NCBI GenBank assembly: GCA_963719225.1 | Contig: CAVRAY010000001.1 | Coordinates: 800,001-864,000 of the forward strand | DNA from: Thermoanaerobaculia bacterium | GTDB taxonomy: Bacteria > Acidobacteriota > Thermoanaerobaculia > UBA5066 | Length of the DNA: 64,000 nucleotides | Direction of reading: 5' to 3' | Shown: positions 1 through 61,114 of the stretch, one piece after another | Numbering within the stretch: the first letter of the stretch is position 1 | Layout of the letters: each line of letters opens with the position of its first letter | The notes under the pieces: model-generated | Told to the model about the DNA's origin: nothing | The model's input: only the letters and a program-made list of their open reading frames with translations | Database searches by the model: none | Translations under genes and position numbers: made by a program

Positions 1-2610
1 CGCGCCCGCCGACACGAGGTTTACGAAGAAGCGGTACGCGCCGGGGACGCCGGCCGGCAGCTGCCGGAAGAACGCGTATCCGGTGTAGACGAACGCGCCC
101 TTTCCGTGCCGCGCGAAGAGGAGGCCGCCGGGTTTCGCGCCCTCGCCGGGATCGTGCGTCTCGATCGTCGTCTCGTAGCGGGGGTCCCACGTTCCCGGGA
201 AGTAGAGGCCGCGCTCCTGCACCCACCCGTCGAAATCGGCCGGCGTCAGCCTGTTCGGAAAGTTGAGAAGCGAGCTCCCGGGGTTCAGGAATTTCACCGG
301 GGCTTCCTCGACGGTGACGCGATCCCGGGAGATCTTGAAGGGGTACGGCCCGATCTGTTCCGTGACGAGGTCTCCCGTCGTGTTGTACTGCGCCACGAGC
401 GTGCCGCCTTTCTCGACGTAATCCTCGAGCCGCGCCTGGGCGAGCTTCAGACGCGGGCGCGTGTTGTAGGCGCGAATTCCGGTCACGATCGCGGCATAGC
501 GCGACAGATCGCCGTTCTCGAGCTCGTCGTCGGCGAGGAGGGTCACGGTGTAGCCCATCTGACGCAGCGCGTCGGGGACCTCATCGCCGGAGCCCATGAC
601 GTAGCCGACGGGCGCCTGCGGCGCTTTCACGTCGAGACGCAGGACTTTCGCCTCGGCGGGAGGAAACAGCGTCCGAGGGGAGATGTGCGGATAGTCGACG
701 CGCACGAGACCGCGCGCATGCACTTTTCCGCTCACGACCGCTTCGGCCGTGAGCGTCGCCACGGAAGATCCGGCAGGCGGCGTCACGGTGAACGTCACCG
801 CCTTCTCCTCGCCGCGCGCCGTGAACGCGAACGGCACCTCGGCCGGCGACGCGGCGAACCCGGACGCCGTCTTCAACCGCAGCACTCCCGAGACGGCGGC
901 GCCGGCCGTCAGCGTGACCCGCACCTTCTTCGGCTTCTCGGTCTCGAACGCGTAGACCTTCTCGTCGAACGTCGCCGTCACGGGCGGCGTGATGACGAAC
1001 GGGCGGTACATCTCGCCCTTGACGGGGTCCGTGCGGCGGAAGACGACGGGCGCCTCGAGCGGGATCGGGACTCCGTCGACTCGGACCGTGAAGCGCGCGA
1101 CGAGAGGCGGCGGGTTCTCGGGGAGGCCGATGAGGGCCGGGTCGGTCACGGTGAATAGTCCCTTTCCAGGCCGGTCCCTCAACCAGTAGGGTTGCGTCGT
1201 CTCGACGTCTCCGGGCAGGGTCAGCGAGATCTCCCGCCGCAGCGGCTCGTTCTGCGCGAGGGCGCCGCCCTCTCCGGGCGCGCCCGCGTACGTCACCGAG
1301 ACCGTCTCGAGCGTCGCCGGTCGGGGCGAGCGGTTCAGGATCATCGTCGCGACCTTCACGCTCGCGCCGGGCGCGGCGGAAGGCTCGCTCGCGACCGCCT
1401 CGACCCAGACGCCGAGACAGGCGCGGATCGCGTCGGCGATGTCGTGGCGCTTGCGCGCGAGGAGGGGGTCCATTTGCTTCGGACCCTCTCCGCGCTTGCT
1501 GCCTTCTCGCGAGGTCGTTTCGGGGATCTGCTTAGAAGGTGAATTGGGCGGCGTGCTCGCCGATTCGGTCACTCGCCCGAGGAGCGTCCATGCTTCGACC
1601 AGCTGGGGAACCGAGGCCGCCGGATCCGTTGGGCGAAATGCCTCCTCCACCTTTCTAAGAATTCTTCCGACTTCCTCTCCCTTCGGCCCATACCGCCCCC
1701 ACGACAGGTCGATTCCCTCGAAGAGGTCCTTCTCCGCCGGCGCGCCCGCGATGTTCTTGAAGTCGTTGAGCCACGTGCCGCGCCGCTCGGCGGAGCCGAA
1801 ACCCTGGCTCTTGTGCATGGACCGGCTGAGCGCCGCGATCTCGGTGTACGAGCGGCCCAGGAGCGCGTTGTAGGCACCGAGGTCCGCCGTGACCTGTCCG
1901 GGCACGTCCTTGCGCGGCGCGTCGCCGCCGAAGCGGAAGACGTTCCAGACAAGCCGTTTCGGCTGCCACGGCGTGAGGACGTCGAGCTGGTCGGGAAACC
2001 GCGACGGGTCGCCCGCGGCCTTGAACGCCTCCTCCGCGAGAATCGCCGAGGCGGTGTGGTGGCCGTGGCCGCCTTCGCCGGTCGTCGGGAAGCGCGTGAC
2101 GATCACGTCCGGCCGGAACGTGCGGATGACGCGCACGGTGTCCGCGAGCACCTGCTCCTTCCCCCAGATCCGGAGCGTTTCCTCGGGGGTCTTCGAATAG
2201 CCGAAGTCGACCGCGCGGGAGAAGAACTGCTTCGCCCCGTCGAGGCGGCGCGCCGCGAGAAGCTCCTGCGTCCTGAGGACGCCGATGAGCTCGCCTGACT
2301 CGGTGCCGATGAGATTCTGGCCTCCGTCGCCGCGCGTCATCGACAGGTACCCCGCGTCCACGAGCCTCTCGCGGGAGGCCCATGCGAGGAACGCCGTGTT
2401 CTCGTCATCGGGGTGGGCCGCGACGTAGAGGACGCCGCCGACGACGTTCAGCTTCGCGAGCGCGAGCCGGATCTCGGCTGCATTCGGTGCCTCGGCGGGA
2501 GCCGCGGCGAGCAGGACGGGCGAGTCCGCCACGGAAACCGCGAACGCCGCGAAGAGCGCGAGGACGAGGAGGACGGCCGCCGGCCGGCGGGAAGAGAGGC
2601 GTCGCGTCAT
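1..2610 (-). CDS. PIG-L/LmbE family deacetylase, secreted multi-domain protein (3' end runs off the window edge)
   Basis: Manual translation, absent from the ORF track because no stop lies in the window: signal peptide MTRRLSSRRPAAVLLVLALFAAFAVS, motifs AAHPDDE, TRGDGGQN, DFGYSKT and GHGHH, and C-terminal GYVMGSGD...GIRAYN...QERGLYF...FFRQLPAGVPGAYR. Confidence 0.9.
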   Translation of the reverse strand, partial: MTRRLSSRRPAAVLLVLALFAAFAVSVADSPVLLAAAPAEAPNAAEIRLALAKLNVVGGVLYVAAHPDDENTAFLAWASRERLVDAGYLSMTRGDGGQNLIGTESGELIGVLRTQELLAARRLDGAKQFFSRAVDFGYSKTPEETLRIWGKEQVLADTVRVIRTFRPDVIVTRFPTTGEGGHGHHTASAILAEEAFKAAGDPSRFPDQLDVLTPWQPKRLVWNVFRFGGDAPRKDVPGQVTADLGAYNALLGRSYTEIAALSRSMHKSQGFGSAERRGTWLNDFKNIAGAPAEKDLFEGIDLSWGRYGPKGEEVGRILRKVEEAFRPTDPAASVPQLVEAWTLLGRVTESASTPPNSPSKQIPETTSREGSKRGEGPKQMDPLLARKRHDIADAIRACLGVWVEAVASEPSAAPGASVKVATMILNRSPRPATLETVSVTYAGAPGEGGALAQNEPLRREISLTLPGDVETTQPYWLRDRPGKGLFTVTDPALIGLPENPPPLVARFTVRVDGVPIPLEAPVVFRRTDPVKGEMYRPFVITPPVTATFDEKVYAFETEKPKKVRVTLTAGAAVSGVLRLKTASGFAASPAEVPFAFTARGEEKAVTFTVTPPAGSSVATLTAEAVVSGKVHARGLVRVDYPHISPRTLFPPAEAKVLRLDVKAPQAPVGYVMGSGDEVPDALRQMGYTVTLLADDELENGDLSRYAAIVTGIRAYNTRPRLKLAQARLEDYVEKGGTLVAQYNTTGDLVTEQIGPYPFKISRDRVTVEEAPVKFLNPGSSLLNFPNRLTPADFDGWVQERGLYFPGTWDPRYETTIETHDPGEGAKPGGLLFARHGKGAFVYTGYAFFRQLPAGVPGAYRFFVNLVSAGA
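1531..1661. repeat. Convergent pair of the dispersed TTCTTAGAAGGT motif
   Basis: CTTAGAAGGTGAA at 1531-1543 and inverted CTCCACCTTTCTAAGAA at 1645-1661. Confidence 0.7.
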
Positions 2611-2644
2611 GCGGGGATTCTAGGGGCAGGGGCTCGCGATCGGC

Positions 2645-3925
2645 TCAGTCCGGCGCGGGCTTCCCGAAGGTCTCCGTGATCGCGAACGTGAGGAGGCAAG
2701 CAAGGAGCAGCATGCCGAGGTTCGTGAGAAACGCGGCGCGATAGCCCGCGACGGGATAGCGTCGCGCGCCGCCTTCGAGGACGCCGAGCCAGTGCGCATC
2801 GAGGATCCGGCCGAGAACGTTCTGTGTCACCGCCGCGCCCAGGAAGCCGCCCGCATTCACCGTGGCCGTCGCGATGCCGCTGAACCGTGGCGGATTTACG
2901 TCGCGTGCGAGGGCCCATGTGAGCGTGAAGCAGCTCGTCGCGAGACCCAGCAGGAAGCAGAGAGGCCCGAGAAGGGCGCGCGGCGGTCCCGCGGAAGGGA
3001 CGCAGACGCAGGCCCAGACGGCCGCGTAGGCGAGCGTGAACAGAATGTAGGGAAGGCGCCGCGCCCGGAAGACCTTGTCGGAGAGGAAGCCGGCCGTCGG
3101 CGCTCCGAGGATGACGCCGATGCTGACGAGGGACACGATCCCCGCGGCCTCCTTCGCCGTCATCCCGTAGACGTCCCGCATCCACGGGACCGCCCAGAGG
3201 CCGGAGAACGAGAGATACGTCCCGTACTGGAAGAAGAAGACGGCGAACATCGGCCACGTCCTCCGGTTTCCGAACACCGTCCGATAGCCCTCGGCCACCG
3301 AGACGCGAGGGACCGCTCCGCGCGCCAAGGGCGGCGGAAGGCCTGCGTCCTCGGGCCGGTCGCGTACGACGGCGAGGCAGAGGCCCGCGAGGGCGAGCGA
3401 AAGCACCGCCACGCCGCCGAACGTCGCGCGCCAGCCGAGGGCGGCGACAACGAGCGCCAGTGGGGCCGTCGCGAGGAGGCCCCCGAGGTTTCCGGCGACT
3501 TGCGTGAGGCCCGACCACGTCCCGAACTCGTCCGGCCTCCACCAGGCGCCCACCTGCTTGAGCATTCCGATGAACACGACGGAAGCGCCCGCACCCACGA
3601 CGAGCCGCGCTCCGTACGCGACGGGCAGGACGCGCGCGGCAGCGAAAACCGCTCCGCCCGCCGCCATCATGGCCGCGCCCGCCGCCACGGCGCGCCGCGG
3701 CCCCCACGCATCCACGGCCGCGCCCACGACGAACTGCATCGCGGCGAACGCGTAGAGGTAGAGGGCGGCCATCGTGGCGACCTCGACTCCCGTCGCCGCG
3801 AAGCTCGCCATGAGGTCTTTCGCGAGGACGGCCGGCGCGATCCGGTGGAAATAGGACACGACGTAGACGAGCGCGAGGACGCCCCAGATGCGCAGCCGGA
3901 TGGCGGCGAACGACCCTTCCCTCAC
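2645..3925 (-). CDS. MFS transporter
   Basis: About 12 hydrophobic helices and motif-A-like GAAVDAWGPRR; GTG start overlaps the amidase stop (GTGA). Confidence 0.9.
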   Translation of the reverse strand: MREGSFAAIRLRIWGVLALVYVVSYFHRIAPAVLAKDLMASFAATGVEVATMAALYLYAFAAMQFVVGAAVDAWGPRRAVAAGAAMMAAGGAVFAAARVLPVAYGARLVVGAGASVVFIGMLKQVGAWWRPDEFGTWSGLTQVAGNLGGLLATAPLALVVAALGWRATFGGVAVLSLALAGLCLAVVRDRPEDAGLPPPLARGAVPRVSVAEGYRTVFGNRRTWPMFAVFFFQYGTYLSFSGLWAVPWMRDVYGMTAKEAAGIVSLVSIGVILGAPTAGFLSDKVFRARRLPYILFTLAYAAVWACVCVPSAGPPRALLGPLCFLLGLATSCFTLTWALARDVNPPRFSGIATATVNAGGFLGAAVTQNVLGRILDAHWLGVLEGGARRYPVAGYRAAFLTNLGMLLLACLLTFAITETFGKPAPD

Positions 3926-5699: not shown

Positions 5700-5739
5700 T
5701 TGTCGCCTCCGTCAAAGTTCGGGGTGATTCAAATGTATC

Positions 5740-5769: not shown

Positions 5770-5778
5770 TCCCTCGCG

Positions 5779-5889: not shown

Positions 5890-5913
5890 GGTACACGGCG
5901 ACACGGAAATCCC

Positions 5914-29740: not shown

Positions 29741-30766
29741 ATGAAGACGGCGAAAGAAGATTCTCTTAGAAGGGTAAGAGGGCGGCTCGCATCGGCTTCG
29801 GCTGCGCCAGGTGGCATCGCCCGCACCACACGCACCGGCCACCTTCTAAGAAAATCCCCGGTCTCCCTCTCTCTCTTGCTCATCGCGCTTCTCTTCTCTT
29901 CCGCCGCGGAGGCGAAGCTCCGGGTCGTCACGTCCCTCCAGGACCTCGCCTCGATCGCGGACGCGATCGGCGGCAACCGGGTGGAGACGTACGCGCTGGC
30001 GAAGGGATATCAGGACCCGCATTTCGTGGACGCCAAGCCCTCCTTCATCCTGAAGCTCTCCCGCGCCGACGTCCTGATCGTCGCCGGTCTCGAGCTCGAG
30101 GTCGGCTACCTGCCGCCGCTGATCGACCAGAGCCGCAACGACAGGATTCATCCCGGCAGCCCCGGGTATCTCGACGCTTCGAGCGGCTGCGACATCCTCC
30201 AGCGGCCGACCCAGCAGGTCACCCGCGCGATGGGCGACGTGCATCCGTACGGGAACCCGCACTACTGGACCGATCCGGAAAACGGCCGCGTGATCGCGCG
30301 GGCCATCGCCCGGAAGCTGTCGGAGCTCGATCCCTTCGGGAAGGCCGTCTTCGAGAAGAACCTCGCCGCTTTCGAAGGACGTCTGACCGAGAAGGAGAAG
30401 GAATGGAACACGAAGATGGGTTCCTACGCGGGGACGAAGGTCGTGACCTTCCACGACTCCTGGCCGAACTTCGCCAAGTACTTCAAGCTCTCGATCGCAG
30501 GGCACATCGAGCCGAAGCCGGGCATTCCGCCCTCGCCCTCTCACACGCTCGAGATCATCAACCTGATCCGGGCGCAGAAGATCCCGGTGATCCTCATCGA
30601 ACCCTACTTCGACAGCAAGACGCCGAAGTACATCGGAGAGAAGACGGGCGCCGCGGTGGTCACGTTCTACCCGTCGGTCGGCGGGATTCCGGAGATCAAG
30701 GACTACTTCTCGCTCTTCGATCACAACATCGAAGCCTTCGTCTCGGCCAGCAAGGCAAAGAAATAG
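29741..30766 (+). CDS. Metal ABC transporter substrate-binding protein (ZnuA/TroA family)
   Basis: QDPHFV, DVHPYGNPHYW, TFHDSW and IEPKPG. Confidence 0.92.
   Translation: MKTAKEDSLRRVRGRLASASAAPGGIARTTRTGHLLRKSPVSLSLLLIALLFSSAAEAKLRVVTSLQDLASIADAIGGNRVETYALAKGYQDPHFVDAKPSFILKLSRADVLIVAGLELEVGYLPPLIDQSRNDRIHPGSPGYLDASSGCDILQRPTQQVTRAMGDVHPYGNPHYWTDPENGRVIARAIARKLSELDPFGKAVFEKNLAAFEGRLTEKEKEWNTKMGSYAGTKVVTFHDSWPNFAKYFKLSIAGHIEPKPGIPPSPSHTLEIINLIRAQKIPVILIEPYFDSKTPKYIGEKTGAAVVTFYPSVGGIPEIKDYFSLFDHNIEAFVSASKAKK
29756..29856. repeat. Convergent pair of the dispersed motif in the 5' end of the ZnuA-like gene
   Basis: GAAGATTCTCTTAGAAGGGTAAGAGGG (29756-29782) and CACCTTCTAAGAAAATC (29840-29856). 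Confidence 0.8.
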
Positions 30767-45815: not shown

Positions 45816-46247
45816 ATGGCACTCTACGAATTTCAGTGCACGAGCTGCGGACGGAAAACCGAGGTCATCCAGCGCTTCTCGGACCCGCCGCCGAAGAAAT
45901 GCCCTCATTGCGGCGGCAAGCTCGTGAAGCTCCTCTCGACTCCGGCGTTCCAGTTCAAGGGCTCGGGGTTCTATGCGACGGACTACGCGAAAGCCGGGGG
46001 GAAGCCGGAGGATTCTTCGAAAGAGAAAGAGGGAGATTCGGCGAAGAAAGAGGGAGATTCTTCGAAAGGGAAAGAAGGGGAGGCCGGCAAACCGAGCGGC
46101 GCCGGGGCCGAGGCCAGCGGCGGTTCGCCGGGGGACTCTTCGAAAGAGAAGAAAGACTCTGGTCCGGCCGCGGCTTCGGAGGGGTCATCCGCGAAAACCT
46201 CGGCCGCGCCCTCTTCACCTTCTAAGAAAGACAGCAAAAGGAAATAG
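45816..46247 (+). CDS. FmdB family zinc-ribbon protein with low-complexity tail
   Basis: YEFQCTSC...CPHCGG...FKGSGFYATDY. Confidence 0.92.
   Translation: MALYEFQCTSCGRKTEVIQRFSDPPPKKCPHCGGKLVKLLSTPAFQFKGSGFYATDYAKAGGKPEDSSKEKEGDSAKKEGDSSKGKEGEAGKPSGAGAEASGGSPGDSSKEKKDSGPAAASEGSSAKTSAAPSSPSKKDSKRK
46209..46231 (-). repeat. Copy of the dispersed motif
   Basis: CCCTCTTCACCTTCTAAGAAA; its reverse complement is 20/21 identical to 14308-14328. Confidence 0.8.
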
Positions 46248-49616: not shown

Positions 49617-49680
49617 GAGATTTCTTAGAGGGTACGAGAGCTGGTCGCTCCTATTTACCTTCTAAGAAGATCTCTCTTCT
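49617..49680. repeat. Intergenic hairpin formed by two inverted copies of the dispersed motif
   Basis: GAGATTTCTTAGAGGGTA (49617-49634) and TACCTTCTAAGAAGATCTC (49656-49674), then a pyrimidine tract. Confidence 0.8.
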
Positions 49681-49684
49681 TTCT

Positions 49685-50185
49685 CTATCTTCCCGGGATT
49701 CCGATCCATTTCAGCTTTGCGCCCTTGACGACACCGTTCTCGCCCGCGACCCCCGCGTTCACCTCGAGGACGGTGTCGGCTTTCGCCGCCGGCACGACGC
49801 TCACGCAGGGCGCCGGGTCGGGCGGACACGGCGGAACGTCCTTCAGCACGTCCATGACGGTTCCGTCCTTCGTCGCGTAGATCAGGTCGAGCGGAAAATG
49901 GCAGTTCTTCATCCAGAAGGGCCGGATCTCGAGACCGTCGAAGAGAAAGACCATCCCGGCGGCGCGTGGCATCGACTCGCGAAACATGAGGCCCTGACCG
50001 CGCTCCTGGTCGTTGACGGCGACCTCGACCGCGATCGCCACGCCGGACGGGAGGACGACGCGCGGGCCCGCAGCGGCAGCCGGCGCCGACGACCCTGCCG
50101 GCGCCGCGGGCGAGGTCGCGGGGCGCGAGCAGGCGGCGACGCCGAGGAGAGCCGCGAAGGAAGCGGCCGCTTGACGCCGGATCAC
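49685..50185 (-). CDS. DUF192 family lipoprotein
   Basis: Lipobox VAAC, GLMFRES, GMVF, FWMKN and VLEVNAG. Confidence 0.9.
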   Translation of the reverse strand: MIRRQAAASFAALLGVAACSRPATSPAAPAGSSAPAAAAGPRVVLPSGVAIAVEVAVNDQERGQGLMFRESMPRAAGMVFLFDGLEIRPFWMKNCHFPLDLIYATKDGTVMDVLKDVPPCPPDPAPCVSVVPAAKADTVLEVNAGVAGENGVVKGAKLKWIGIPGR

Positions 50186-51630
50186 GACTCCTCGACGGGC
50201 GGCGGAAGGACGGCGCGCTCGTCGGACGTCTCCTCGCCGTCGCGGCGGATGCCGTACTTCTTGGCGTAGTAGCGGAACGAGCGCTCCGACATCCGGAGAA
50301 GCTCGGCGGCGCGGATCTGCACGCCTCCCGTCCTCTCGAGTGCCTGCTGCATGAGGCGCTTGCCGAGCCATTCCAGGTAGGCCTCGAGGTCGAGGCCGTC
50401 GGTCGGAAGGTCGAACCCCTCGAGGGAAGACGCGGGCGGCAGGCCGGCCGGATGCAGGAAGGTGTCCGGAAGGGAAGCCGTCGTGATGACGTCGGTCGGC
50501 TCGAGCGCGATCGTGCGCTCGATCAGATTCTCGAGCTCTCGCACGTTGCCGGGCCACGCGTAAGCCTCGAGGAGCCGCAACGCCTCGGTCGTGATCCTCT
50601 TTTCATCGATGCCCTGCTCCAGCGAGACTTTCTGCAGGAAGTGCCGGACGAGGTGGGGAATGTCGTCGCGGCGCTCGCGCAGCGGAGGGAGTGCGACGGG
50701 AATGACGTTGATGCGGTAATAGAGGTCCTCGCGGAACGTCCCGTCCGCCACTTTCTTCTGCAGGTCCTTGTTGGTCGCGCAGATGATCCGCACGTCGATC
50801 GGCTCTTCGGTGTTGCCGCCGACGCGGCGCACGACCCGCTCCTGCAACGCGCGCAGGAGCTTCACCTGCATCGTGACGGAGGTCTCGCCGATCTCGTCGA
50901 GGAAGACGGTTCCGCCCTCGGCCTCTTGAAAGAGGCCTTTCTTCTCCTTGACGGCGCCCGTGAACGCGCCACGTTCGTGGCCGAAGAGCTCCGACTCGAG
51001 GAGGTTCTCGGGCATCGCGCCGCAATTGATCGAGATGAAGGGCTTCGCCGCGCGGGATGAGGCCTGGTGGATCGCACGGGCGACGAGCTCCTTGCCGGTG
51101 CCCGACTCACCCGCGATGAGGACCGTCGACGTCGTCTTGCCGATGCGCGAGATGAGATCGAAGAGGGCGCGCATCTTGCGCGAGATGCCCACGACTCCGG
51201 CGGCGGAGCGCCCCTCGGCGCGCTCCTTGAGCGCGACGTTCTCGTCGACGAGGCGTTTCTTCTCGAGAGCGCGCCCGACGACGTGCTTGAGCTCCTCGAC
51301 GTCGAATGGCTTCGCAATGTAGTCGTAGGCTCCGGCTTTGAGCGCCTCGACGGCCGTCTTCGTGGACGAGTACGCCGTGATCATGACGACGGGCAGATCG
51401 GGGTTCGACTCGTGTGACTTCCTGAGGATGTCGAGGCCGCTTCCATCCGGCATCTTGAGATCCGTCATCACGAGGTCGGGCGGCGCGGCGGCGAGGGCCG
51501 CGAGGCCCTCGACGCAGCCGGCCGCCGACGTGACGCGGTAGCCCGCCTTCTGGAAAAGGATCGTGAGCATCTCCCGGATGCCGGCCTCGTCGTCGATGAC
51601 GAGGAGGTGCGGGCCGTTTTCGGCCGTCAT
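50182..51630 (-). CDS. pilR: Sigma54-dependent response regulator (PilR-like)
   Basis: Receiver domain, GESGTGKE, GAFTGA, FLDEI, FREDLYYR and WPGNVREL; follows pilS. Confidence 0.88.
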   Translation of the reverse strand: MTAENGPHLLVIDDEAGIREMLTILFQKAGYRVTSAAGCVEGLAALAAAPPDLVMTDLKMPDGSGLDILRKSHESNPDLPVVMITAYSSTKTAVEALKAGAYDYIAKPFDVEELKHVVGRALEKKRLVDENVALKERAEGRSAAGVVGISRKMRALFDLISRIGKTTSTVLIAGESGTGKELVARAIHQASSRAAKPFISINCGAMPENLLESELFGHERGAFTGAVKEKKGLFQEAEGGTVFLDEIGETSVTMQVKLLRALQERVVRRVGGNTEEPIDVRIICATNKDLQKKVADGTFREDLYYRINVIPVALPPLRERRDDIPHLVRHFLQKVSLEQGIDEKRITTEALRLLEAYAWPGNVRELENLIERTIALEPTDVITTASLPDTFLHPAGLPPASSLEGFDLPTDGLDLEAYLEWLGKRLMQQALERTGGVQIRAAELLRMSERSFRYYAKKYGIRRDGEETSDERAVLPPPVEES

Positions 51631-53324
51631 GAAACCTCCGTCGTGGCGCGTTCGGACGCCGCCGGAACGCCGCCCTCCTCCGCGGAAGCCGCGAGGGGAA
51701 GAGAGATGGAAACCGTCGTGCCCCGTCCCGGCGTCGTATCGACGCGAATTGCTCCGCCGTGCTCCTCGACGATCCGATGGACGATCGCGAGACCGAGGCC
51801 GGTGCCGCCGGGAAAGCTGTGCGCGAAGGGCGTGAAGAGGCGGTCCCGCTCGTCGGCCGTCATTCCGTGGCCTTCGTCCGCAAACGACACGTTCCACTGG
51901 TTTCCCCGAAGGTGGGCCGAAACCGAGAGCGTCCCGCCGCCGGGCATCGCCGCGAGCGCGTTGCGCGCGACGTTCCAGAAGATCTGCCGGAGCTGACCAG
52001 GGTCCGCCTGGACCACGACCGAGGGCGGGTCGAACTCCTGCACGACGCGGTGGCGCGAGGAGATCTCGTCTCCGTGCGCGAGAAGCGTCAGCACGTCGTC
52101 GAGGGCCGCGGGCGCGTCCACCGGCTCGATGGCGCGCTCTTTCGGCCGGACGTACCTCAGGAAGTCCTCGAGGATCGAGGAGAGGCGTTGAGACTCGGCG
52201 ACGACGATCTCCATGAGCTTCTGCTCGGGCGACCCGGGCGAGGACGAGTCCTTGAGGACCTGCACCGAACCGGAGATCGAAGCGAGAGGGTTGCGGATCT
52301 CGTGCGCGATCCCGGCGGCGAGCTCACCGACGGCCGCGAGCTTGTCCTTGAGGCGCACTTCGCCCTCGAGCCGCTTGAGCTCGGTGAGATTCTGGAAGAT
52401 GAGGATGCGCCCGATCGTGTAGCCCGAGCCGTCCCTCAGGGCCGTCGCCGAGATTCCGAAGTACTCCTCACCCTCCTGCGATCGGCGGGTGTTCTCGAAG
52501 CGGAGGATCTCGGAGCCCGAAGCGGCGATTTTCTTCCAGTCCGCGTCGCCGACGAGCCCGAGTCCGAGGAGCGGGCGGCCCACGAGATCGACCGACGGCG
52601 TGCCGAGCAGCTCCTGCGCGGCGCGGTTCGCATATGTGACGCCTCCGTCGAGGTCCGTCGTGAGGACACCCGAGGACATCGACATCAGGACCGAGCCGTG
52701 AAGAGCCTGGAGCCGGGCGATCTCGGCCTTGCGGCGCTCCACGTCGGCGCGCGCCTCGCGCAGCTTGTCCGACGCGATCGAGACGAGTAGCGCCGTCGCG
52801 ACGAAAGCGGCGATGTTGAGCGCGACGTTTCCGACGAGCGTGGGAAGGCTCCAGAAGTGTCGCGTGCGCTCGCCCGTCTCGAGGGGCCCGACGACCTCGA
52901 GGTACATGAGGTCGACGAGGACGGCGTAGAAGACCGCCGCGAGCCCCGCCGTCGCGAGGCCGCCTCGCCGGCCGAGCAGGATCGATCCCGCCGTGACCGT
53001 GCTCAGGTAGAGGAATGTGAAGCCCGAATCCGGGCCTCCCGAGACGTAGACGAGGCCGGTGATGACGACGAGGTCGCCGAGGAGCTGCACGCCGGCGTTC
53101 GTTTCGGCCGGAATCCGGTCGAGCGACAGGATCGCCACGATCGAGATCGAGTAGGCGAACGCGGCCAGGTAGTAGATGAAATTGAGAGGCAGGGACGTCG
53201 AGAACGTGAACTGGATGAGGAAAGCCGAGAGGAGAAGCGTCGAGACGATGACGACGCGCAGGACGACGAACGCCCGCAGCATCGAGTGCAGCGGCTCGAA
53301 AGCCCGCATCCGCCCTGAACTCAC
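51627..53324 (-). CDS. pilS: PAS sensor histidine kinase (PilS-like)
   Basis: Multi-TM N-terminus, PAS domain, AHEIRNPL and GTGLGL; alternative ATG at 53309. Confidence 0.85.
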   Translation of the reverse strand: MSSGRMRAFEPLHSMLRAFVVLRVVIVSTLLLSAFLIQFTFSTSLPLNFIYYLAAFAYSISIVAILSLDRIPAETNAGVQLLGDLVVITGLVYVSGGPDSGFTFLYLSTVTAGSILLGRRGGLATAGLAAVFYAVLVDLMYLEVVGPLETGERTRHFWSLPTLVGNVALNIAAFVATALLVSIASDKLREARADVERRKAEIARLQALHGSVLMSMSSGVLTTDLDGGVTYANRAAQELLGTPSVDLVGRPLLGLGLVGDADWKKIAASGSEILRFENTRRSQEGEEYFGISATALRDGSGYTIGRILIFQNLTELKRLEGEVRLKDKLAAVGELAAGIAHEIRNPLASISGSVQVLKDSSSPGSPEQKLMEIVVAESQRLSSILEDFLRYVRPKERAIEPVDAPAALDDVLTLLAHGDEISSRHRVVQEFDPPSVVVQADPGQLRQIFWNVARNALAAMPGGGTLSVSAHLRGNQWNVSFADEGHGMTADERDRLFTPFAHSFPGGTGLGLAIVHRIVEEHGGAIRVDTTPGRGTTVSISLPLAASAEEGGVPAASERATTEVS

Positions 53325-53351
53325 CCGGAGATATTAGTTCTAATTGCTCTT

Positions 53352-54557
53352 CTAGTTGATCTTGCTGATGAGGTCGAACATCGGCATGTACATCGCGACG
53401 ACGATCGTGCCGATGACGACGCCGAGGATCGCGATCATGATGGGCTCCATGAGCTTCATGAGGCCGGCGACCGCATTGTCGACCTCTTCCTCGTAGAACT
53501 CCGCGATCTTGTTCAGCATCGCGTCGAGGGCGCCCGTCTGCTCGCCGACTCCGATCATCTGCACGACCATGGACGGGAAAACCTTCGTTTCGCCGAGCGG
53601 TTCGGCGATCGTGCGCCCGGCTTCGACGGACTTCCGGACCCCCATGATCGCGTCCTCGACGATCGCGTTTCCGGCGGTCTTGGCGGTGATCTCGAGGCCG
53701 TCGAGGATCGGTACGCCCGAAGAGGTCAGCGTGGCGAGCGTGCGGCAGAAACGCGCGACGGCGATCTTCCTCATGATGTCGCCGAGGACCGGCATCTTCA
53801 GGACGATGCCGTCGATGACGCGCCTGCCCCGGTACGTCGCGTAGTAGCGCTTCAGGAAGTAGCCGAGCGCGACAATTCCCGCGATGATGAAGAGGAGGTA
53901 GCTCGCGACGAAGTTCGAGGCCTTGATGACGAGCCGCGTGGGGAGCGGCAGCTCGGCGCCGAGAGCCGCGAAAAGCGAAGCGAACGTCGGAATGACCTTC
54001 CACAGGATGATGAAGACGACGATGGCCGCGACCGTGAGGACGGCGACGGGGTAGATGAGAGCCGTCTTGACCTGGCTCTTCAGCTTGACGGCCTTCTCGA
54101 TGTAGGTCGAGAGGCGGCGCAGGATCGTGTCGAGGATACCGCCCGCCTCGCCGGCCGCCACCATGTTCACGAAGAGGTCGTCGAACGCCTTCGGGTGCTT
54201 GCGCATCGCCTCGGCGAGCGACGAGCCCGCTTCGACGTCCTGCCGCACGGCCAGGATGATCTTCTGGAAAAGACGGCTGTCCTGCTGGCTGCCCAGGATC
54301 TCGAGGCACTGGACGAGCGGAAGACCGGCGTCGATCATGACCGAGAACTGGCGCGTGAAGATCGCGAGGCGCCGTGCGTTGACGCTGCCGCCGCCGAGCT
54401 TCGGGACGGCCAGCTCCTTGCCCTTCTCCTTGACCGTCGTGACGTCGATCTGCCGGCGCCTGAGATCGGCGATCGCGAGGTCCTTCGAGTCCGCGACGAG
54501 GACTCCACCCGTCGTGCCACCCTGCCGCGTGCGGCCTTTCCAGACGAACTGCGCCAT
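53352..54557 (-). CDS. pilC: Type IV pilus inner-membrane platform protein
   Basis: FTRQFSVMIDAGLPL, AGEAGG, ALIYP, GEQTG and EPIMI. Confidence 0.95.
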   Translation of the reverse strand: MAQFVWKGRTRQGGTTGGVLVADSKDLAIADLRRRQIDVTTVKEKGKELAVPKLGGGSVNARRLAIFTRQFSVMIDAGLPLVQCLEILGSQQDSRLFQKIILAVRQDVEAGSSLAEAMRKHPKAFDDLFVNMVAAGEAGGILDTILRRLSTYIEKAVKLKSQVKTALIYPVAVLTVAAIVVFIILWKVIPTFASLFAALGAELPLPTRLVIKASNFVASYLLFIIAGIVALGYFLKRYYATYRGRRVIDGIVLKMPVLGDIMRKIAVARFCRTLATLTSSGVPILDGLEITAKTAGNAIVEDAIMGVRKSVEAGRTIAEPLGETKVFPSMVVQMIGVGEQTGALDAMLNKIAEFYEEEVDNAVAGLMKLMEPIMIAILGVVIGTIVVAMYMPMFDLISKIN

Positions 54558-54576
54558 GGATCCTCCGAGAGCTTTT

Positions 54577-55722
54577 CTATCCGCGCCGTGTCACGTTCGC
54601 CGGCGCTCCGGGGACGGCAGCGGTGCCGCCGGCCGCCGTCGAAGTGACGACGCCCGCGCCGCGCGCGATCATCTCGGCGAGCTCGTCCGGGAGAGACGAG
54701 ACCGACATCGCGAGCTCCTGCGAGATGACGCGGCGGTGAACGAGCGTCGCGAGCGATTGGTTGAACGTCTGCATGCCGTACTTGTTCTGGCCGGTCTGCA
54801 TCATCGAGTAGATCTGGTGGAGCTTGTCCTCGCGGATGAGGTTCCGAATCGCGGGAGTCGGGATGAGGATCTCCATGGCCATGCAGCGGCCTTTTCCGGA
54901 GGCGCGGGGCAGGAGGCTTTGACAGAGGATCCCCTCGAGCACGAACGACAGCTGCGCGCGCACCTGGGGCTGCTGGTTCGCGGGAAACGCGTCGATGATG
55001 CGGTTCATCGTCTGCACGGCGCTGTTCGTGTGGAGCGTCGCGAGGGTGAGGTGGCCCGTCTCGGCGATCCTGAGCGCGCACTCCATCGTCTCGAGGTCGC
55101 GCATCTCGCCGACGAGGACGATGTCCGGGTCTTCGCGGAGGACGGCCCTCAGGGCGTTCGGAAAGGAATGCGTGTCGGCGTGCAGCTCGCGCTGGTTCAC
55201 GATGCAGCGCTTGTGCGTGTGGAGGAACTCGATCGGATCCTCGATCGTGACGATGTGCTTCGGATGCTCCCGGTTGATCTTGTCCAGCATCGTCGCCAGG
55301 GTCGTGGACTTGCCCGAGCCGGTCGGGCCCGTGACGAGGACGAGGCCGCGCGGCTTGTTGCAGAGGCCCTCGACCACGTTCGGAACGCCCAGCTCGCGGA
55401 AGCCGAGGATCTCGTACGGGATCTGCCGGAAGACCGCCGACACGGCGCCCCGCTGCAGGAAGCAGTTTCCGCGGAAACGCGCGAGTCCCTTCACGCCGAA
55501 GGACAGGTCCAGCTCGAGCTGCTCCTCGAACCGGTGCTTCTGCACGTCGGTCAGGATCGAATAGGCGAGCTGCTTCGTCTCGGGAACCGCGAGAGGCGGG
55601 TAGTCGAGAGGAATGAGATCCCCATCCACCCGGATCATCGGGGGCGAGTTCGTCGTGAGGTGAAGGTCGGATCCTCCGCGCTCGACGAGCGTCTTGAGAA
55701 GCTGATGGAGCGTAACCCCCAT
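54577..55722 (-). CDS. pilT: Type IV pilus retraction ATPase
   Basis: GSDLHL, GPTGSGKSTT, EDPIE, GEMRD, ETGHL, AIRNLIRE and GMQT. Confidence 0.96.
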   Translation of the reverse strand: MGVTLHQLLKTLVERGGSDLHLTTNSPPMIRVDGDLIPLDYPPLAVPETKQLAYSILTDVQKHRFEEQLELDLSFGVKGLARFRGNCFLQRGAVSAVFRQIPYEILGFRELGVPNVVEGLCNKPRGLVLVTGPTGSGKSTTLATMLDKINREHPKHIVTIEDPIEFLHTHKRCIVNQRELHADTHSFPNALRAVLREDPDIVLVGEMRDLETMECALRIAETGHLTLATLHTNSAVQTMNRIIDAFPANQQPQVRAQLSFVLEGILCQSLLPRASGKGRCMAMEILIPTPAIRNLIREDKLHQIYSMMQTGQNKYGMQTFNQSLATLVHRRVISQELAMSVSSLPDELAEMIARGAGVVTSTAAGGTAAVPGAPANVTRRG

Positions 55723-55733
55723 TTCGCTGTCCC

Positions 55734-55749
55734 TCCTGAGTACTCAGGA
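55734..55749. promoter_or_regulatory. Perfect 16-bp palindrome between the pilT -10 box and SD
   Basis: TCCTGAGTACTCAGGA; TATGAT lies immediately upstream on the minus strand and AGGAGG overlaps one arm. Confidence 0.55.
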
Positions 55750-55797
55750 ATCATACGCGGGGGAAGCCCCGGAGGCCAGAGGGCCGTCGCAACCCCT

Positions 55798-56196
55798 TCA
55801 AACCCAGGAATGGACGGAAAGCAACCCGCTCCCGAGGATGAGGCGCAGGTCGCGATCCCGGGCCAGGACGGCACAGCCGTTCTCGTCGGCCAGGACGGCG
55901 ACCAGGCAGTCGATCGTCGAGCGCACGGTCACACCACGCCGGCGAAGCGAACGGTAGAGCTCGGCAGCCTTGAGATAGGCCGAGAGGCCGGAGGCCTCGA
56001 GGAGCGTCATCTTCCGGAAGAACTCCTCCAGCGCCTCGCGCTCGCGCCGGATCCCCTGGAAGACCTCGGCGACGACGATTCCACAGGTGCAGACGTCGTC
56101 CTCGCCCGCGAGGAGGCGGTCCACGGCGACGGCCTCCGGAGACTTCGTCCCGTTCAGGAACTCGACCCACGCCGATGTGTCGACGAGCACCCTCAC
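55798..56196 (-). CDS. vapC: PIN-domain toxin (VapC family)
   Basis: VLVDTSAWVE, AEVFQG, STIDCLVA and DRD. Confidence 0.92.
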   Translation of the reverse strand: MRVLVDTSAWVEFLNGTKSPEAVAVDRLLAGEDDVCTCGIVVAEVFQGIRREREALEEFFRKMTLLEASGLSAYLKAAELYRSLRRRGVTVRSTIDCLVAVLADENGCAVLARDRDLRLILGSGLLSVHSWV

Positions 56197-56399
56197 GACG
56201 GCCGGGGCCGCCTCTTGCGGAGCGCGTCGAGGTCGCCCTGCCAGCCGACCTTGCCCGCGAGCTTCCGCAGGCCGCGCAGCGCGCGCCGGCGCGCGTAATC
56301 TCGTAGCGCGTCATTGATCACGGCCGTCTTCGTCTTTCCAGGGTCGGCTTCCAGCGCCGCCGCGAGCGCCTCGTCGTCGATGTTCAAGGTCGTCCGCAT
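56193..56399 (-). CDS. vapB: VapB-type antitoxin (DUF2191/RHH-like)
   Basis: MRTTLNIDDE...TKTAVINDALR...W.GDLDALR; overlaps the vapC start. Confidence 0.88.
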   Translation of the reverse strand: MRTTLNIDDEALAAALEADPGKTKTAVINDALRDYARRRALRGLRKLAGKVGWQGDLDALRKRRPRPS

Positions 56400-56400
56400 G

Positions 56401-56424
56401 ATCTGCCTCGTGATGCAGATTCTA
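56401..56424 (-). promoter_or_regulatory. vapBC -10 box with putative autorepression operator
   Basis: TAGAAT (56424-56419) overlapping the inverted repeat ATCTGC-N8-GCAGAT. Confidence 0.55.
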
Positions 56425-56690
56425 CTACGACTGGATCTGTATATAGATGGTCTGGTTGCAAGCCGGCGTGAGGATAAGATCGCACCCCGTGAATAGTGAG
56501 AGATCCGGCGCCCGCCAGCTCCTCGCTAGGAGGAAGGCGTTTTCCAAGAAGAAGTTCCGTAACCTCGGGGCGAAGCTGAATAGGCTCGGCGCCTCACCAC
56601 GGTTTGATTCAGTCCCGAGCTCAGGGAAGCTGACACTGGCCCTGTGCGCTCCAGCAGTGACTGAGGCTCTACCGCGACTCGGGCCCGTGC

Positions 56691-58418
56691 TTACAGCACC
56701 GTCTCGCGGACGACTTCCTCGATCGAGGTCATGCCGTCCTTGATCTTCTGGAGGCCCGAGCGCCTGAGGGAGACCATGCCCTCCTCCAGGCCCTTCCGCT
56801 TGATCTCGATGGAGGACGCGCCGGAAAGGATGAGCTCCCGGATCTCCTCCGAGATCTCCAGCACCTCGACGAGGGCGACGCGGCCCTTGTAGCCGGTGTT
56901 GTTGCACTTCTCGCAGCCCTTGCCCTTCATGACCTGGATGGCTTTCGCGTCCTCGGCCGTGAAGCCGAGCGACACGAGGACCTGCGGGGCGACTTCCGTG
57001 GGCGCCTTGCAGGCCGCGCACACGCGCCGGATGAGGCGCTGCGCCGCGATGAGGACGACGGACGTCGCGACGAGGTACGGCTCGATCCCCATGTTCATGA
57101 GGCGGTTGATCGTGGAGGGCGCGTCGTTCGTATGAAGGGTCGACAGGACGAGGTGGCCCGTCAAGGCCGCCTTGACGGCGATCTCGGCTGTCTCGAAGTC
57201 CCGGATCTCGCCGACGAGGATGATGTTCGGGTCCTGCCTCAGGAACGACCGCAGCGCGGCCGCGAAGTTCAGCCCGATCTGGTCCTTCATCTGGACCTGG
57301 TTGATCCCCGGCAGGTTGAACTCGACGGGATCCTCGGCCGTGATGATGTTCGTCTCGGGCGTGTTGATCCGAGAGAGGGCGGAGTAGAGGGTGTTCGTCT
57401 TGCCCGAGCCCGTGGGCCCCGTCACGAGGACCATTCCCCACGGGCGCAGAATGGCCTTCTCGAACTTGAGGAGGCTGTCCTTCTCGAACCCCAGCTTCGT
57501 CATGTCGAGCATGAGGTTGTCCTTGTCGAGGAGGCGGCAGACGATCTTCTCGCCGAAGAGAGTCGGAAGGACCGAAACGCGGTAGTCGAGCTCCTTCACC
57601 TTGCCCGTGAGCTTCATCTTGATCTTGATGCGCCCGTCCTGCGGGAGGCGCTTCTCGGCGATGTCGAGCTTCGCGAGGATCTTGATACGCGAGGCGATGG
57701 CCTCCTTGAGCTTCGGAGGCGGGTTCATGACCTCGTACAGGATTCCGTCGATGCGGTAACGCACGCGGTATTCGCGCTCGTAGGGCTCGATGTGGATGTC
57801 CGAAGCCCCCCGCTTGATGGCGTCCGTGAGGATGATGTTCACGAGCCGGATGACGGGGGCTTCCTCGCCCTCGTCGACGAGCTTCTCGAGGTCGATCGTC
57901 TCTTGCTCGGACTCCTCGACGACCTCGAGGGAGGTGTCGGCAGTATCCGTGACCGACATCTCCTCCATGACCTTCTTCAGCTCGAGGGCATGGGTCGCGC
58001 CGTAATGCTTGTCGATCGCGAGCGAGAGCGCCGCCTCGGACGCCACGACAGGCTCGACGTTGTATCCCGTCATGAACTTGATGTCGTCCATGGCGAAGAC
58101 GTTCGTCGGGTCGGCCATCGCGATCGTGATCGTCGCGCCGGTCTTGTTGACGGGAAGGATGTTGTACTTGCGTGCGACATCGGCGGCGACGAGCTTGAGG
58201 ACGGCGGGGTCGATCTCGAAATGCGAGAGGTTGATCGAGGGAACGCCGAACTGGGCCGAGAGCGTCTCCGTGATGTCGTCTTCCGTGATGTAGCCGAGCT
58301 TGACGAGGGCCTCTCCGAGCTTCATCCCCGAGGACTGAACCTCCTTGAGCGCTTCCTGGAGCTGCTCGTTCGAGATGAGCTTCGACTTGACGAGGAGGTC
58401 CCCGAGCTTGACGGCCAT
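56691..58418 (-). CDS. pilB: Type IV pilus assembly ATPase
   Basis: MshEN-like N-terminus, ASDIHIEP, RLPQDGR, GPTGSGKT, LRQDPN, TGHLVLSTLHTN and a CxxC pair. Confidence 0.96.
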   Translation of the reverse strand: MAVKLGDLLVKSKLISNEQLQEALKEVQSSGMKLGEALVKLGYITEDDITETLSAQFGVPSINLSHFEIDPAVLKLVAADVARKYNILPVNKTGATITIAMADPTNVFAMDDIKFMTGYNVEPVVASEAALSLAIDKHYGATHALELKKVMEEMSVTDTADTSLEVVEESEQETIDLEKLVDEGEEAPVIRLVNIILTDAIKRGASDIHIEPYEREYRVRYRIDGILYEVMNPPPKLKEAIASRIKILAKLDIAEKRLPQDGRIKIKMKLTGKVKELDYRVSVLPTLFGEKIVCRLLDKDNLMLDMTKLGFEKDSLLKFEKAILRPWGMVLVTGPTGSGKTNTLYSALSRINTPETNIITAEDPVEFNLPGINQVQMKDQIGLNFAAALRSFLRQDPNIILVGEIRDFETAEIAVKAALTGHLVLSTLHTNDAPSTINRLMNMGIEPYLVATSVVLIAAQRLIRRVCAACKAPTEVAPQVLVSLGFTAEDAKAIQVMKGKGCEKCNNTGYKGRVALVEVLEISEEIRELILSGASSIEIKRKGLEEGMVSLRRSGLQKIKDGMTSIEEVVRETVL

Positions 58419-58435
58419 GCAGCGATTCTAGCTTT

Positions 58436-59317
58436 TCAGGGCGCGGCCGGCCGATCGCGATGTGGTTTTGCGCCGCCCACGATCTTCCGGAGGCGCGCCG
58501 TAACCGAGCCGATCGGCATCACCGTCTTGGCCATGACGGGGAGGCGCCGCTCGTCGGCCGAGAACCAGAGAAAGAGCTTTCCGCGGTTGCGGTCCTCGGC
58601 CGTCTCGTTTTCCCGGAGCTGGGGCTGCACCTTGAACGCTTCGAACGTGCCGGCCTCGGTCTCGACTCTCTCTTTCTCGAGGATCGAGGCCTTGAGCTTG
58701 TAGATTTTCCCACGCGAGAACATGTCGAGGCGGACGTCCTGACCCACGGCGAGCGGCTGCGTACGCAGGAAGTAGAAGGAGGAAATGATGTCCTGGACCC
58801 GCTCGGGCAACGGGGTCCGGTCCTCCCGCCAGCTGCCGATCCGACGCGTGAGGTCGAACTCCTCGACCTCGTCGGACTCGTAGCGCCCTTCACGCGCGTG
58901 CTTCTCGAAGCGAAGGGGCTGGAAGTCGCGCGCATCCACCCACGTCTCGTAGAGGTCGCGCACGGGGTAGAACTTCGAGACGTAGTCGTTCGAGGTGGCG
59001 ACGAGGGCGATCCGGTGAACGGGCACGCCGTCCGTCGAGGTCTCGCGCGAAGTCCTGAGCGTCATCTCGCCGCCCTCGATCTTCAGCCACGCGATCGTAT
59101 AGACGAGGGTCTCGCCGTCGCCGAAGGGCACGGGATAAAGCCGGTCCCTCGAGAGCGACTCGCGCGCCGCGGAGATCGCGGGGCTTTTCTCGACGGTCCC
59201 GGAGGCGCGGCCGCCCAGGAGGACGGCGACCGCCCAGGCGGCCGCGAGAACGGCGGCCGCGCTGCGCGCGCGCGCGGTCTTACGCGCGGAGACGGCGGGT
59301 GGCTTCATGAACGGCAT
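58436..59317 (-). CDS. DUF3108-like exported protein
   Basis: GETLVY.I.W...G, DIISSFYFLR, ETEAGTF, LWFSADERRLPV and IGSV. Confidence 0.75.
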   Translation of the reverse strand: MPFMKPPAVSARKTARARSAAAVLAAAWAVAVLLGGRASGTVEKSPAISAARESLSRDRLYPVPFGDGETLVYTIAWLKIEGGEMTLRTSRETSTDGVPVHRIALVATSNDYVSKFYPVRDLYETWVDARDFQPLRFEKHAREGRYESDEVEEFDLTRRIGSWREDRTPLPERVQDIISSFYFLRTQPLAVGQDVRLDMFSRGKIYKLKASILEKERVETEAGTFEAFKVQPQLRENETAEDRNRGKLFLWFSADERRLPVMAKTVMPIGSVTARLRKIVGGAKPHRDRPAAP

Positions 59318-60323
59318 CGGCAGGCCATCCCGGCCTGGAACGATTGTAGTCCGCGGGAGATTCCCGGAGCGTCGCCGCCCGGGGCCCGATCGGGCCGAAG
59401 CGTTCGACGGACGTCGGGCCGAAGAGGACGAGCGTCGGCGTGCCCGACGCGGCCGCGAGGTGCGTCGGTCCCGTATCGGCGCCGACGAAAAGCGCCGCGC
59501 GCGACGCGAGTCGGGCGGTGGAGGCGGGGGTCGTGGCGGGGGCGAGGAGAAGAGGAAGACTTGAGGAAGAGGGAGAGGAAGAGAAGATTTTCTTAGAAAG
59601 GGTAAGAAGCGAATCTGCCCGGCCCTTTTCTTCCGGCCCCCAGCGGAGCACGGGCTGGATGCCTTCGGAGGAGAGCCGCTCGGAAAACGCCACGACGTCA
59701 GCCGCTGCCCATTCCTTGTTACCCTTCGAAGAAAAAGGCTGTAACACCGCGAACCTGCGCTCGCCCATCTGCTCCAGCCAGGAATCGACCGCGGGATCTT
59801 CTCTCTCGACCAGATGCTTCACGTCCGGCGTCCTCTCGAATCCCGTCTTTCCCGTCACGTGCTCGGCGAGCGCGAGCATCCGGTCGGCGACGTGCGGGCG
59901 TGAGGTGCGGTCGACGTCGATGTGCTCGTCCGTGAAAAGACAGTTGATCCGCTCGGTCGCCGTCTTCCACCCGAAGCCGACCTTGCGCGGCGCGCCCCGC
60001 GCCGCCAGCGTCACGAGCGCCGATTTGAACAGGCCCTGCGCATCGACGACGAGATCGAACGGGGTCTTTTCCCCTCTTACCCTTCTCAGAAATTCCGAAA
60101 TCCCCTCTCTCGTCTTCGTGGCGCGCCAGGCGCGCCGCCACCCGCGCGTGTCGACGGGCAGAACGTCGTCCACGTACGGTGCGCCGGTCACGAGTTGCGC
60201 CAGCGGTGGCTCGATCGCCCACGTGAGTTGCGCGCCGGAGAGAGCGGTCTCGAGCGCCTTCGCCGCGGGAAGCGCGAAGACGACGTCGCCGAAGGACGAG
60301 AGGCGCACGAAGAGGATCCGCAT
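59280..60323 (-). CDS. waaC: Lipopolysaccharide heptosyltransferase I (GT9)
   Basis: VRLSSFGDV, DAQGLFKSA, ADTGPTHLAAA and LFGPT. Confidence 0.9.
   Translation of the reverse strand: MRILFVRLSSFGDVVFALPAAKALETALSGAQLTWAIEPPLAQLVTGAPYVDDVLPVDTRGWRRAWRATKTREGISEFLRRVRGEKTPFDLVVDAQGLFKSALVTLAARGAPRKVGFGWKTATERINCLFTDEHIDVDRTSRPHVADRMLALAEHVTGKTGFERTPDVKHLVEREDPAVDSWLEQMGERRFAVLQPFSSKGNKEWAAADVVAFSERLSSEGIQPVLRWGPEEKGRADSLLTLSKKIFSSSPSSSSLPLLLAPATTPASTARLASRAALFVGADTGPTHLAAASGTPTLVLFGPTSVERFGPIGPRAATLRESPADYNRSRPGWPADAVHEATRRLRA
59581..60093. repeat. Three copies of the dispersed motif inside waaC
   Basis: GAGAAGATTTTCTTAGAAAGGGTAAGAAG (59581-59609); inverted TTACCCTTCGAAGAAAAA (59719-59736) and CCCTCTTACCCTTCTCAGAAAT (60072-60093). 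Confidence 0.75.
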
Positions 60324-60366
60324 CCGGCTGGCGCAACCTTAGCAGCCGTTGGGCTATCCTTGGATC

Positions 60367-60948: not shown

Positions 60949-60986
60949 GGCGCGTTTCCGGTGATGTCTGGGTTTGGGTCAGGCCG

Positions 60987-61114
60987 TTTTTCTTGGAAGG
61001 TGAAGAGGGCGGGACCCACGCTTCCGGGATTGCCGGTGCACGGAAAGGTGCAGACTCGCCCGGGAACGAATGTGCGGCTCGAGCGCGAATCATCCCTTAA
61101 ACCATTCTAAGAAA
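60987..61114. repeat. Intergenic convergent pair of the dispersed motif
   Basis: TTTTTCTTGGAAGGTGAAGAGGG (60987-61009) and ACCATTCTAAGAAA (61101-61114). Confidence 0.7.

Follow-up and report, generated by a model that had tools for sequence, protein, structure and literature searches.

Copies of a paired motif in the window

The window considered here is a 64-kb stretch of a Thermoanaerobaculia genome (Acidobacteriota; referred to as G000; 4.75 Mb, 68% GC, two contigs, C1 and C2, estimated contamination 6.2%). It carries repeated copies of a short directional DNA motif, present inside genes as well as in intergenic DNA. Each copy, or arm, covers ~45 bp: a purine tract on the outer side is followed by W-T-TTC-TT(A>C>T,G)-GAA-D-G and, on the inner side, by G-K-R-A-A-R-R-G-G-G. 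The core (consensus TTTCTT-A/C-GAA-D-G), set in a purine-rich strand, is quasi-palindromic, and the direction of an arm is set by its flanks. Scores were obtained with an iterated matrix trained on G000 itself, sites of at least 18 bits being regarded as strong, and genes were taken from a home-made model (3835 genes, 88% coding). The arms of the window are the following:

1529..1661, convergent pair with cores at 1529-1537 (forward) and 1653-1661 (reverse), centres 124 bp apart; 31.3 and 25.8 bits
14309..14317, plus strand, single strong arm in a beta-lactamase/NamZ gene (12508-14967, minus strand; Pfam); 26.1 bits
26500..26508, plus strand, weaker arm in a GSDH-family gene; 14.9 bits
28028..28036, plus strand, single arm in the same GSDH-family gene (25932-28517); 20.7 bits
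29763..29852, convergent pair, 81 bp; 30.9 and 21.4 bits
41201..41292, divergent pair in the gene of a FAD-binding protein, with cores at 41201-41209 (reverse) and 41284-41292 (forward); 20.1 and 18.5 bits
46013..46228, three tandem forward arms (46013, 46058, 46136) against one reverse arm (46220-46228); 21.2, 23.4, 16.8 and 24.2 bits
49622..49668, short intergenic convergent pair, 38 bp; 25.3 and 33.9 bits
59590..59733, convergent pair, 135 bp, in a glycosyltransferase-9 gene (59280-60323, minus strand); 33.8 and 20.1 bits
60083..60091, minus strand, single arm in the same glycosyltransferase-9 gene (EFLRRVRG); 28.0 bits
60990..61113, intergenic convergent pair, 115 bp, after an HNH gene; 21.9 and 24.7 bits

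A motif of this kind had been proposed from the letters of the window (the original prediction), with 20 listed copies. The quoted letters are present at all 20 positions, and 17 of these score at least 18 bits. Those at 13480, 13801 and 41591 (-2.1, 1.6 and 1.2 bits) are not members of the family, and the copies at 46013, 46136 and 26500 come in addition to that list. The identity claimed between 14308-14328 and 60989-61009 is exact, with the reverse complement of 46209-46229 one base off, and the 18-mer at 13480 is the inverse of that at 41591 (two copies in the genome). The peptides SPSKK, FLEG, LRRVRG, TLSKK and ILRK are encoded as described.

Several of these copies are informative individually. 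The pair at 1529..1661 is part of a gene on the minus strand whose end is close to the start of the window, and it encodes ...PPNSPSKQIP... and ...GRILRKVEE..., while the flanks of the 14309 arm correspond to a Ser-rich loop insertion (SPSPSKKSSSFFSP) that is absent from sister genera in the orthologue alignment. The pair at 29763..29852, in the predicted N-terminal part of a ZnuA-like gene whose start codon is uncertain, is retained in a relative at 72% identity (locus L012). The divergent pair at 41.2 kb breaks the orientation rule and is one of 8 such close pairs genome-wide. In the 46013..46228 cluster the reverse arm is located 84 bp from the nearest forward arm; the gene model places the cluster in intergenic DNA, but an open reading frame with a zinc-ribbon Pfam match (45816-46247) would span it. 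The arms of the 49622..49668 pair are 89 bp apart in a relative (L074), and the inside therefore differs by an indel. In the glycosyltransferase-9 gene, the outer flank of the 59590..59733 pair is a species-variable loop insertion of 0-22 codons (23 orthologues aligned). The lone arm at 60083 is kept in 12 of 12 genus orthologues, and in genome G179 an insertion of ~20 codons supplies its equivalent with a facing arm at a distance of 67 bp.

A genome-wide, lineage-specific paired signal

G000 contains 689 sites of at least 18 bits, against 20, 27 and 21 in three shuffles in which synonymous codons were permuted per predicted gene and bases per intergenic segment. The word TTCTTAGAA occurs 273 times, against 0, 5 and 1 in the three shuffles, and motif words rank among the most over-represented 9- to 12-mers of the genome. 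The enrichment over a codon-aware null that the original prediction implied is thus present, and so is the proposed link with rare TTA codons, since 74 of the 246 TTA codons of the genome lie within 12 bases of a site centre. Moreover, 173 of the 295 purine/pyrimidine runs of at least 18 coincide with a site, 172 of them on the motif strand. The motif is read in different frames and strands, as had been noted in the window: the 453 sites inside predicted genes (229 sense, 224 antisense) occupy all six frames, and 404 of them are interior to genes. Intergenic density is 37-44 sites per 100 kb in every gap class, with no preference for promoters or terminators or for divergent or convergent gaps. 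The overall density is 0.15 per kb and the sites are clumped (coefficient of variation 1.43, and 1.17 near dif).

A second enriched word of G000 has its source in attC-like repeats ending GTTAG, which form integron cassette arrays at C1:1.103-1.114 Mb and 2.197-2.208 Mb (integrase gene at C1:1115037).

The arms have a strongly preferred arrangement. Sites have a neighbour within 300 bp in 253 cases, of which 206 are convergent, 39 tandem and 8 divergent; this bears out the predicted order of a forward copy followed by a reverse copy genome-wide, with the 41.2-kb pair of the window in reversed order. A facing partner (at least 8 bits, within 250 bp) accompanies 458 of the 615 strong sites considered, and an outward partner only 9. 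Most pairs are 65-200 bp apart, with a spacing mode at 75-76 bp; only 17 of 270 are separated by less than 65 bp, including a few short ones of 28-58 bp. The exact pairs of other genomes share this spacing, 55 of 112 being at 74-76 bp where the pattern permitted 59-89. More than half of the pairs (158 of 270) lie within a single gene. The DNA inside them is ordinary host sequence, unrelated between pairs, and pairs of 66-90 bp have no conserved centre. A further peak at 93 bp is due mostly to one kinase paralogue family: a group of tandem Ser/Thr kinase paralogues at C1:2.295-2.320 Mb carries a 93-bp pair in each kinase domain.

Since facing arms can pair (~-30 kcal/mol), RNA or single-strand hairpins, terminators, invertible switches or ordinary transcription-factor sites might be envisaged. 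Intergenic pairs do form slightly better RNA duplexes than permuted ones (-31.7 against -30.1 kcal/mol, sd 0.8, n=52), and the few pairs of 28-58 bp point in the same direction. However, for 144 coding pairs the native duplex energy equals the permuted one (-30.54 and -30.51 kcal/mol), changes tolerated by G-U pairing are not favoured (659 against 617), an Rfam scan of the window gave no match, and the coding sites lie mostly in gene interiors. The strengths of partner arms are uncorrelated. Their likeness outside the core is that of random partners (z -0.5 to 0.7), and within the core it is 0.862 against 0.851 (z 3.2). No inversion was found among 39 alignable orthologous pairs. Of 354 joints in four contig sets, the 15 listed include none that changes strand at a pair, a result that carries no information either way; none of the public sequencing runs contains half of the window stretch. 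As partner arms do not covary, an RNA hairpin, an inverton and an insertion of the Rickettsia type are unlikely. Arms that are no more alike than random, with no better RNA pairing, are as expected of protein sites. The hairpin or switch explanation is largely refuted for coding pairs, and this whole group of explanations is very improbable.

The signal is confined to one lineage. Among 185,579 species genomes the exact paired pattern occurs at 112 loci, 110 of which align to G000; all 80 loci listed of these 112 carry Acidobacteriota or Thermoanaerobaculia titles. In a family survey with a 13-base pattern, matches number 116-519 in G000 and in each of 28 of 28 genus genomes, 2-60 in the sister genus (8 of 8 genomes) and 0-2 in the remaining 26 family genomes. 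An 11-mer reaches at most 10 copies in 140 class genomes outside the genus. Of the 119 phylum genomes surveyed beyond the genus, not one comes near its level, and the most pronounced excess amounts to 59 matches against 11 control matches in a genome of 8.4 Mb; two unpublished genomes (G004 and G242) are counted only among the negatives of these class and phylum surveys. Viral contigs yielded no locus with the strict paired pattern and 7 with a relaxed one, all of 35-42% GC and taken as chance matches.

The sites are also well conserved. G000 orthologues are alignable over both arms at 39 of the 112 loci (mean identity 80%; several represent the same locus in different species), and 31 of these keep both arms, 8 one arm and none neither. 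The cores are conserved at an identity of 0.88, although local alignment may favour them as anchors; distant flanks have 0.78-0.83 and the DNA inside pairs 0.60-0.65. Sister-genus sites are convergent as well (12 inward, 0 outward, n=29), and all 18 that align, from 30 loci, fall at a G000 site, which implies that the signal is older than the genus split and has since expanded in, or decayed outside, one genus. The motif is a real, well-conserved and lineage-specific paired cis signal, and the genome-wide signal acting at the DNA level that the original prediction had proposed is supported.

Imprint on proteins and distribution along the chromosome

The original prediction left insertion and point mutation as alternative origins of the copies, and orthologue alignment assigns a part to each. 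Substitutions create the core in the orthologues of glycosyltransferase-9 and NamZ, where, for example, SDFLRRVRG of the genus corresponds to RAFLSSLRAF of distant genera, whereas the flanks enter as inserted loops of 0-22 codons. The loops added by flanks are Ser-rich or rich in Glu, Lys and Arg. Comparison with a sister genome (G052, sampled over 2.3 of its 4.2 Mb, or 55%) generalises this: at 77 of 185 coding sites (42%) at least 3 residues are inserted no more than 15 positions away, which holds for 12% of control positions. Core codons have an identity of 0.27-0.51, against 0.65. A site is present in 122 of 1180 orthologues. Site density is 1.4 per 100 kb in genes of at least 80% identity and 25.6 in those of 45-60%, and it is 10.4 in genes without a match in the sample of G052, against 19.0 elsewhere. 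Whole arms are gained or lost as indels of 30-45 bp.

Such changes might be those of a selfish or mutational product without host function, its arms being written by recombination, slippage or a mobile-element enzyme in the manner of REPINs or Rickettsia palindromic elements (RPE). The latter elements are repeats within reading frames that land in protein loops, as the arms do. The low complexity and variable length of the flank insertions, their frequency at coding sites and the coming and going of arms, one of which is missing at 8 of 39 loci, are consistent with this explanation. In contrast to RPE, REPIN and miniature inverted-repeat transposable elements, however, the pairs enclose no homologous insert of 100-150 bp, only the flanks and some arms being indels. 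The cores arise by substitution and outlast their surroundings, and the correspondence of all alignable sister-genus sites with G000 sites is also difficult to reconcile with it. The RPE-like repeat suggested by the original prediction is thus rejected, since the DNA between the arms is ordinary host sequence, and a selfish origin in general is improbable.

On the chromosome, dnaA and parS are located on C2 near 326-334 kb and dif at C1:2,037,570, in agreement with GC skew. With the end of C2 assumed to meet the start of C1, density over eight classes of increasing distance from the origin is 6.6, 8.8, 7.1, 12.6, 17.9, 18.5, 20.2 and 24.4 sites per 100 kb. This almost fourfold rise from origin to terminus is found in coding and intergenic DNA alike and has no strand bias (329 leading and 360 lagging sites); the origin-most octile still holds 39 sites. 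In orthologous genes, a control restricted to C1, 19.9 sites per 100 kb close to dif give way to 10.2 far from it, at a steady mean protein identity of 66-71%. Two pairs flank dif in G000, and a site lies within 500 bp of the end of the dif-adjacent gene in 16 of 19 genus loci. In genome G177, 66 of 119 exact matches fall in the 1.5 Mb around dif and 53 in the other 2.6 Mb, an approximately twofold difference in density. Long motif-free stretches of C2 (473-623 kb and 746-872 kb), near segments of 71% and 65% GC, may be acquired DNA or bin contamination; if contamination, the site-free parts of C2 could steepen the gradient in G000.

The surroundings of dif have other peculiarities. A second parA-parB operon lies beside it (C1:2037570-2039524; loci L218-L248, L265-L268). 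The second ParB is encoded in 56 of 63 family genomes and adjoins dif in at least 31 loci, from four genera in addition to the genus itself. A position at the terminus is unusual for a ParAB system. Across genera, nearly every locus has a 15-bp palindrome (CCTWAT-N3-ATWAGG-like; C1:2037610 in G000) ~15 bp from dif, and the same palindrome occurs twice (C1:1590215 and 1590266) upstream of a gene labelled LexA-like by eye; it is probably an SOS box. One of two copies of a transposase-like gene (C1:2033909 and 2504818) is 2.6 kb from dif.

Several of these properties recall uptake sequences, one of the candidates of the original prediction. The motif could represent a third family of DNA-uptake (or packaging) sequences, in which a symmetric receptor prefers two facing arms and biased uptake followed by recombination spreads the motif into whatever genes tolerate it. 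Like the DNA-uptake sequences (DUS) of Neisseriaceae and the uptake signal sequences (USS) of Pasteurellaceae, it is lineage-restricted, equally frequent on both strands, intragenic in all six frames and generated in its core by mutation. Its scarcity in conserved genes and its halved density in genes without a G052 match parallel what PMC2817400 reports for DUS and USS. Furthermore, comEC is encoded in G000, and pilB, pilT, pilC, pilS and pilR lie in the window. The effect on proteins fits uptake, but the gradient, the clumping and the wide pairing do not. PMC2817400 describes the distribution of DUS and USS, at 0.8-0.9 per kb, as more even than expected by chance, whereas the motif is five- to sixfold sparser, is clumped, follows a fourfold gradient, occurs within genes as pairs 65-200 bp apart and is frequently accompanied by loop insertions. 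In addition, inverted DUS pairs are mostly terminators according to bioRxiv 10.1101/2025.10.24.684340, whereas most pairs here lie in one gene. Neither comEC, found in motif-free relatives too, nor the type IV pilus genes are specific to the motif. An uptake function is considered rather unlikely.

The rise toward dif would also suit a late-cycle cue for replication, repair or topology, such as a two-way stop of the Chi or Ter kind, paired loading sites for helicases or translocases placed head to head, or sites for gyrase, topoisomerase IV or SMC unloading. Asymmetric arms, fixed orientation and the spacing floor are consistent with this possibility, and G000 encodes SMC, ScpAB, FtsK, XerC/D-like proteins and two type II topoisomerase pairs. 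Unlike Chi, Ter and the FtsK-orienting polar sequences (KOPS), however, the motif has no replichore bias, pairs of 66-90 bp lack a conserved centre, and separate skewed G-rich words look like the KOPS or architecture-imparting sequences (AIMS) of G000. Such a cue is unlikely, less so than a selfish origin.

Candidate function and reader

The explanation preferred here, with a probability of roughly 45%, is that the arms are sites for a symmetric, terminus-biased chromosome organiser. Two protein complexes on one duplex, or a single symmetric complex that grips both legs of a tight bend, would be expected to leave directional arms in fixed facing orientation, conserved cores, a lower limit of spacing and an unconstrained interior. 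The rise toward the terminus, being free of strand bias, favours a part in organising or segregating the chromosome over uptake. A putative two-fold symmetric protein would bind both arms of a short DNA bend, and the floor of ~65 bp may correspond to the room needed by two complexes or by a U-turn. In this way it would probably contribute to compaction, anchoring or segregation of the chromosome's terminus half. By analogy, this would resemble the bridging of matS sites by MatP, a dimer of dimers that bridges two sites (PMC7858052), with a graded field of hundreds of local loops in place of a few dozen single sites. According to the same source, matS-MatP of E. coli and ZapT of Caulobacter likewise have terminus-biased sites regardless of genes. 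However, matS is a 13-mer confined to 800 kb, whereas the present motif consists of hundreds of asymmetric 45-bp arms in close convergent pairs, with a chromosome-wide ramp that extends into the origin-most octile, and reshapes proteins.

Several observations weigh against such an organiser. Spacing has no convincing helical phasing (best Rayleigh p 0.046 for 11 periods tried), and a rigid loop would tend to show it. G052 holds only 11 sites of at least 18 bits in 2.3 Mb, with a few strong pairs among them, so that a dense field is unnecessary in close kin; when 1.06 Mb of its sequence was searched de novo for enriched words, no dialect taking the place of the motif emerged. Because the sites are inherited, different genomes are non-independent evidence for the gradient. 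G173 has 53 and 43 sites per Mb from dif up to dnaA and 13 per Mb beyond. This genome is ambiguous and counts against a simple distance rule: dnaA and dif are only 0.73 Mb apart on its contig C2 in a genome of 3.9 Mb, and rearrangement or misassembly may be involved.

The organiser suggested by the original prediction is backed by the gradient and by the pairs flanking dif, but no reader protein was found in a search that spanned part of the proteome and did not include the MatP family. Subtraction against the G052 sample gave 118 genes missing inside syntenic blocks and 145 small basic orthologues, among which inspection by eye, without Pfam, revealed no obvious new nucleoid protein. Since G052 retains a few strong pairs, subtraction may be the wrong filter. 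Individual candidates were rejected, and the first three of these rejections also weigh against the organiser. The second, dif-linked ParB is present in 10 of 10 genera, including motif-free ones, with the same recognition helix. A ZapT-like MerR protein, encoded in G000 together with ZapA and a ZapB-like coiled coil, has an identical helix-turn-helix in the nearly motif-free G052. An 86-aa basic protein occurs in only 4 of 63 genomes. Finally, comEC and FtsK, found in 5 of 5 test genomes, do not track the motif.

Among other known systems, the highly repetitive motif of Lactococcus lactis may be the closest precedent: its copies, too, reportedly keep certain distances within pairs, and it is rare in mobile genes (as cited in PMC2526093). 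AIMS and KOPS are commoner toward the terminus (PMC5993296), like the motif, but AIMS are 8-mers biased to the leading strand, unlike the paired and unbiased motif. HIP1 of cyanobacteria is hyper-abundant, with a proposed chromosome role, but is a single perfect palindrome of 8 bp (PMC5861425).

Noc and SlmA sites, also named in the original prediction, are excluded from the terminus region, whereas the motif is densest near dif. No description of the motif was found in the literature searched, where coverage of subscription papers is thin.

A more comprehensive but doubtful proposal is that the motif constitutes a new chromosome code. Hundreds of convergent pairs would each nucleate a fixed small loop or wrap, recognised by a lineage-specific reader and graded from origin to terminus. 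Selection or drive would act on the code with enough force for whole peptide loops to have entered a tenth of the core proteome, and the code would predate the split of two genera and have undergone an approximately thirtyfold expansion in one of them. Among known bacterial signals, few have the strength to reshape proteins genome-wide, and terminus organisers are known from very few lineages. In the motif, paired geometry goes together with a terminus gradient and with inserted peptides, and high, low and zero doses of it are available among close relatives. If architectural, it would point to a new organiser outside Proteobacteria; if involved in uptake, to a third family of uptake sequences with a new two-site geometry. 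It also accounts for the puzzling Ser-rich and Glu/Lys/Arg-rich loops of the genus and provides a sharp marker for binning.

In the window, the type IV pilus cluster pilB, pilT, pilC, pilS and pilR (50182-58418) is interrupted by a PIN-domain gene that is absent at that place in G052. Three repeats of 54-60 nt in a DUF4097 gene (35390-35544) and a 12-nt repeat of the Pro/Thr type (16882-16972) are ordinary coding repeats.

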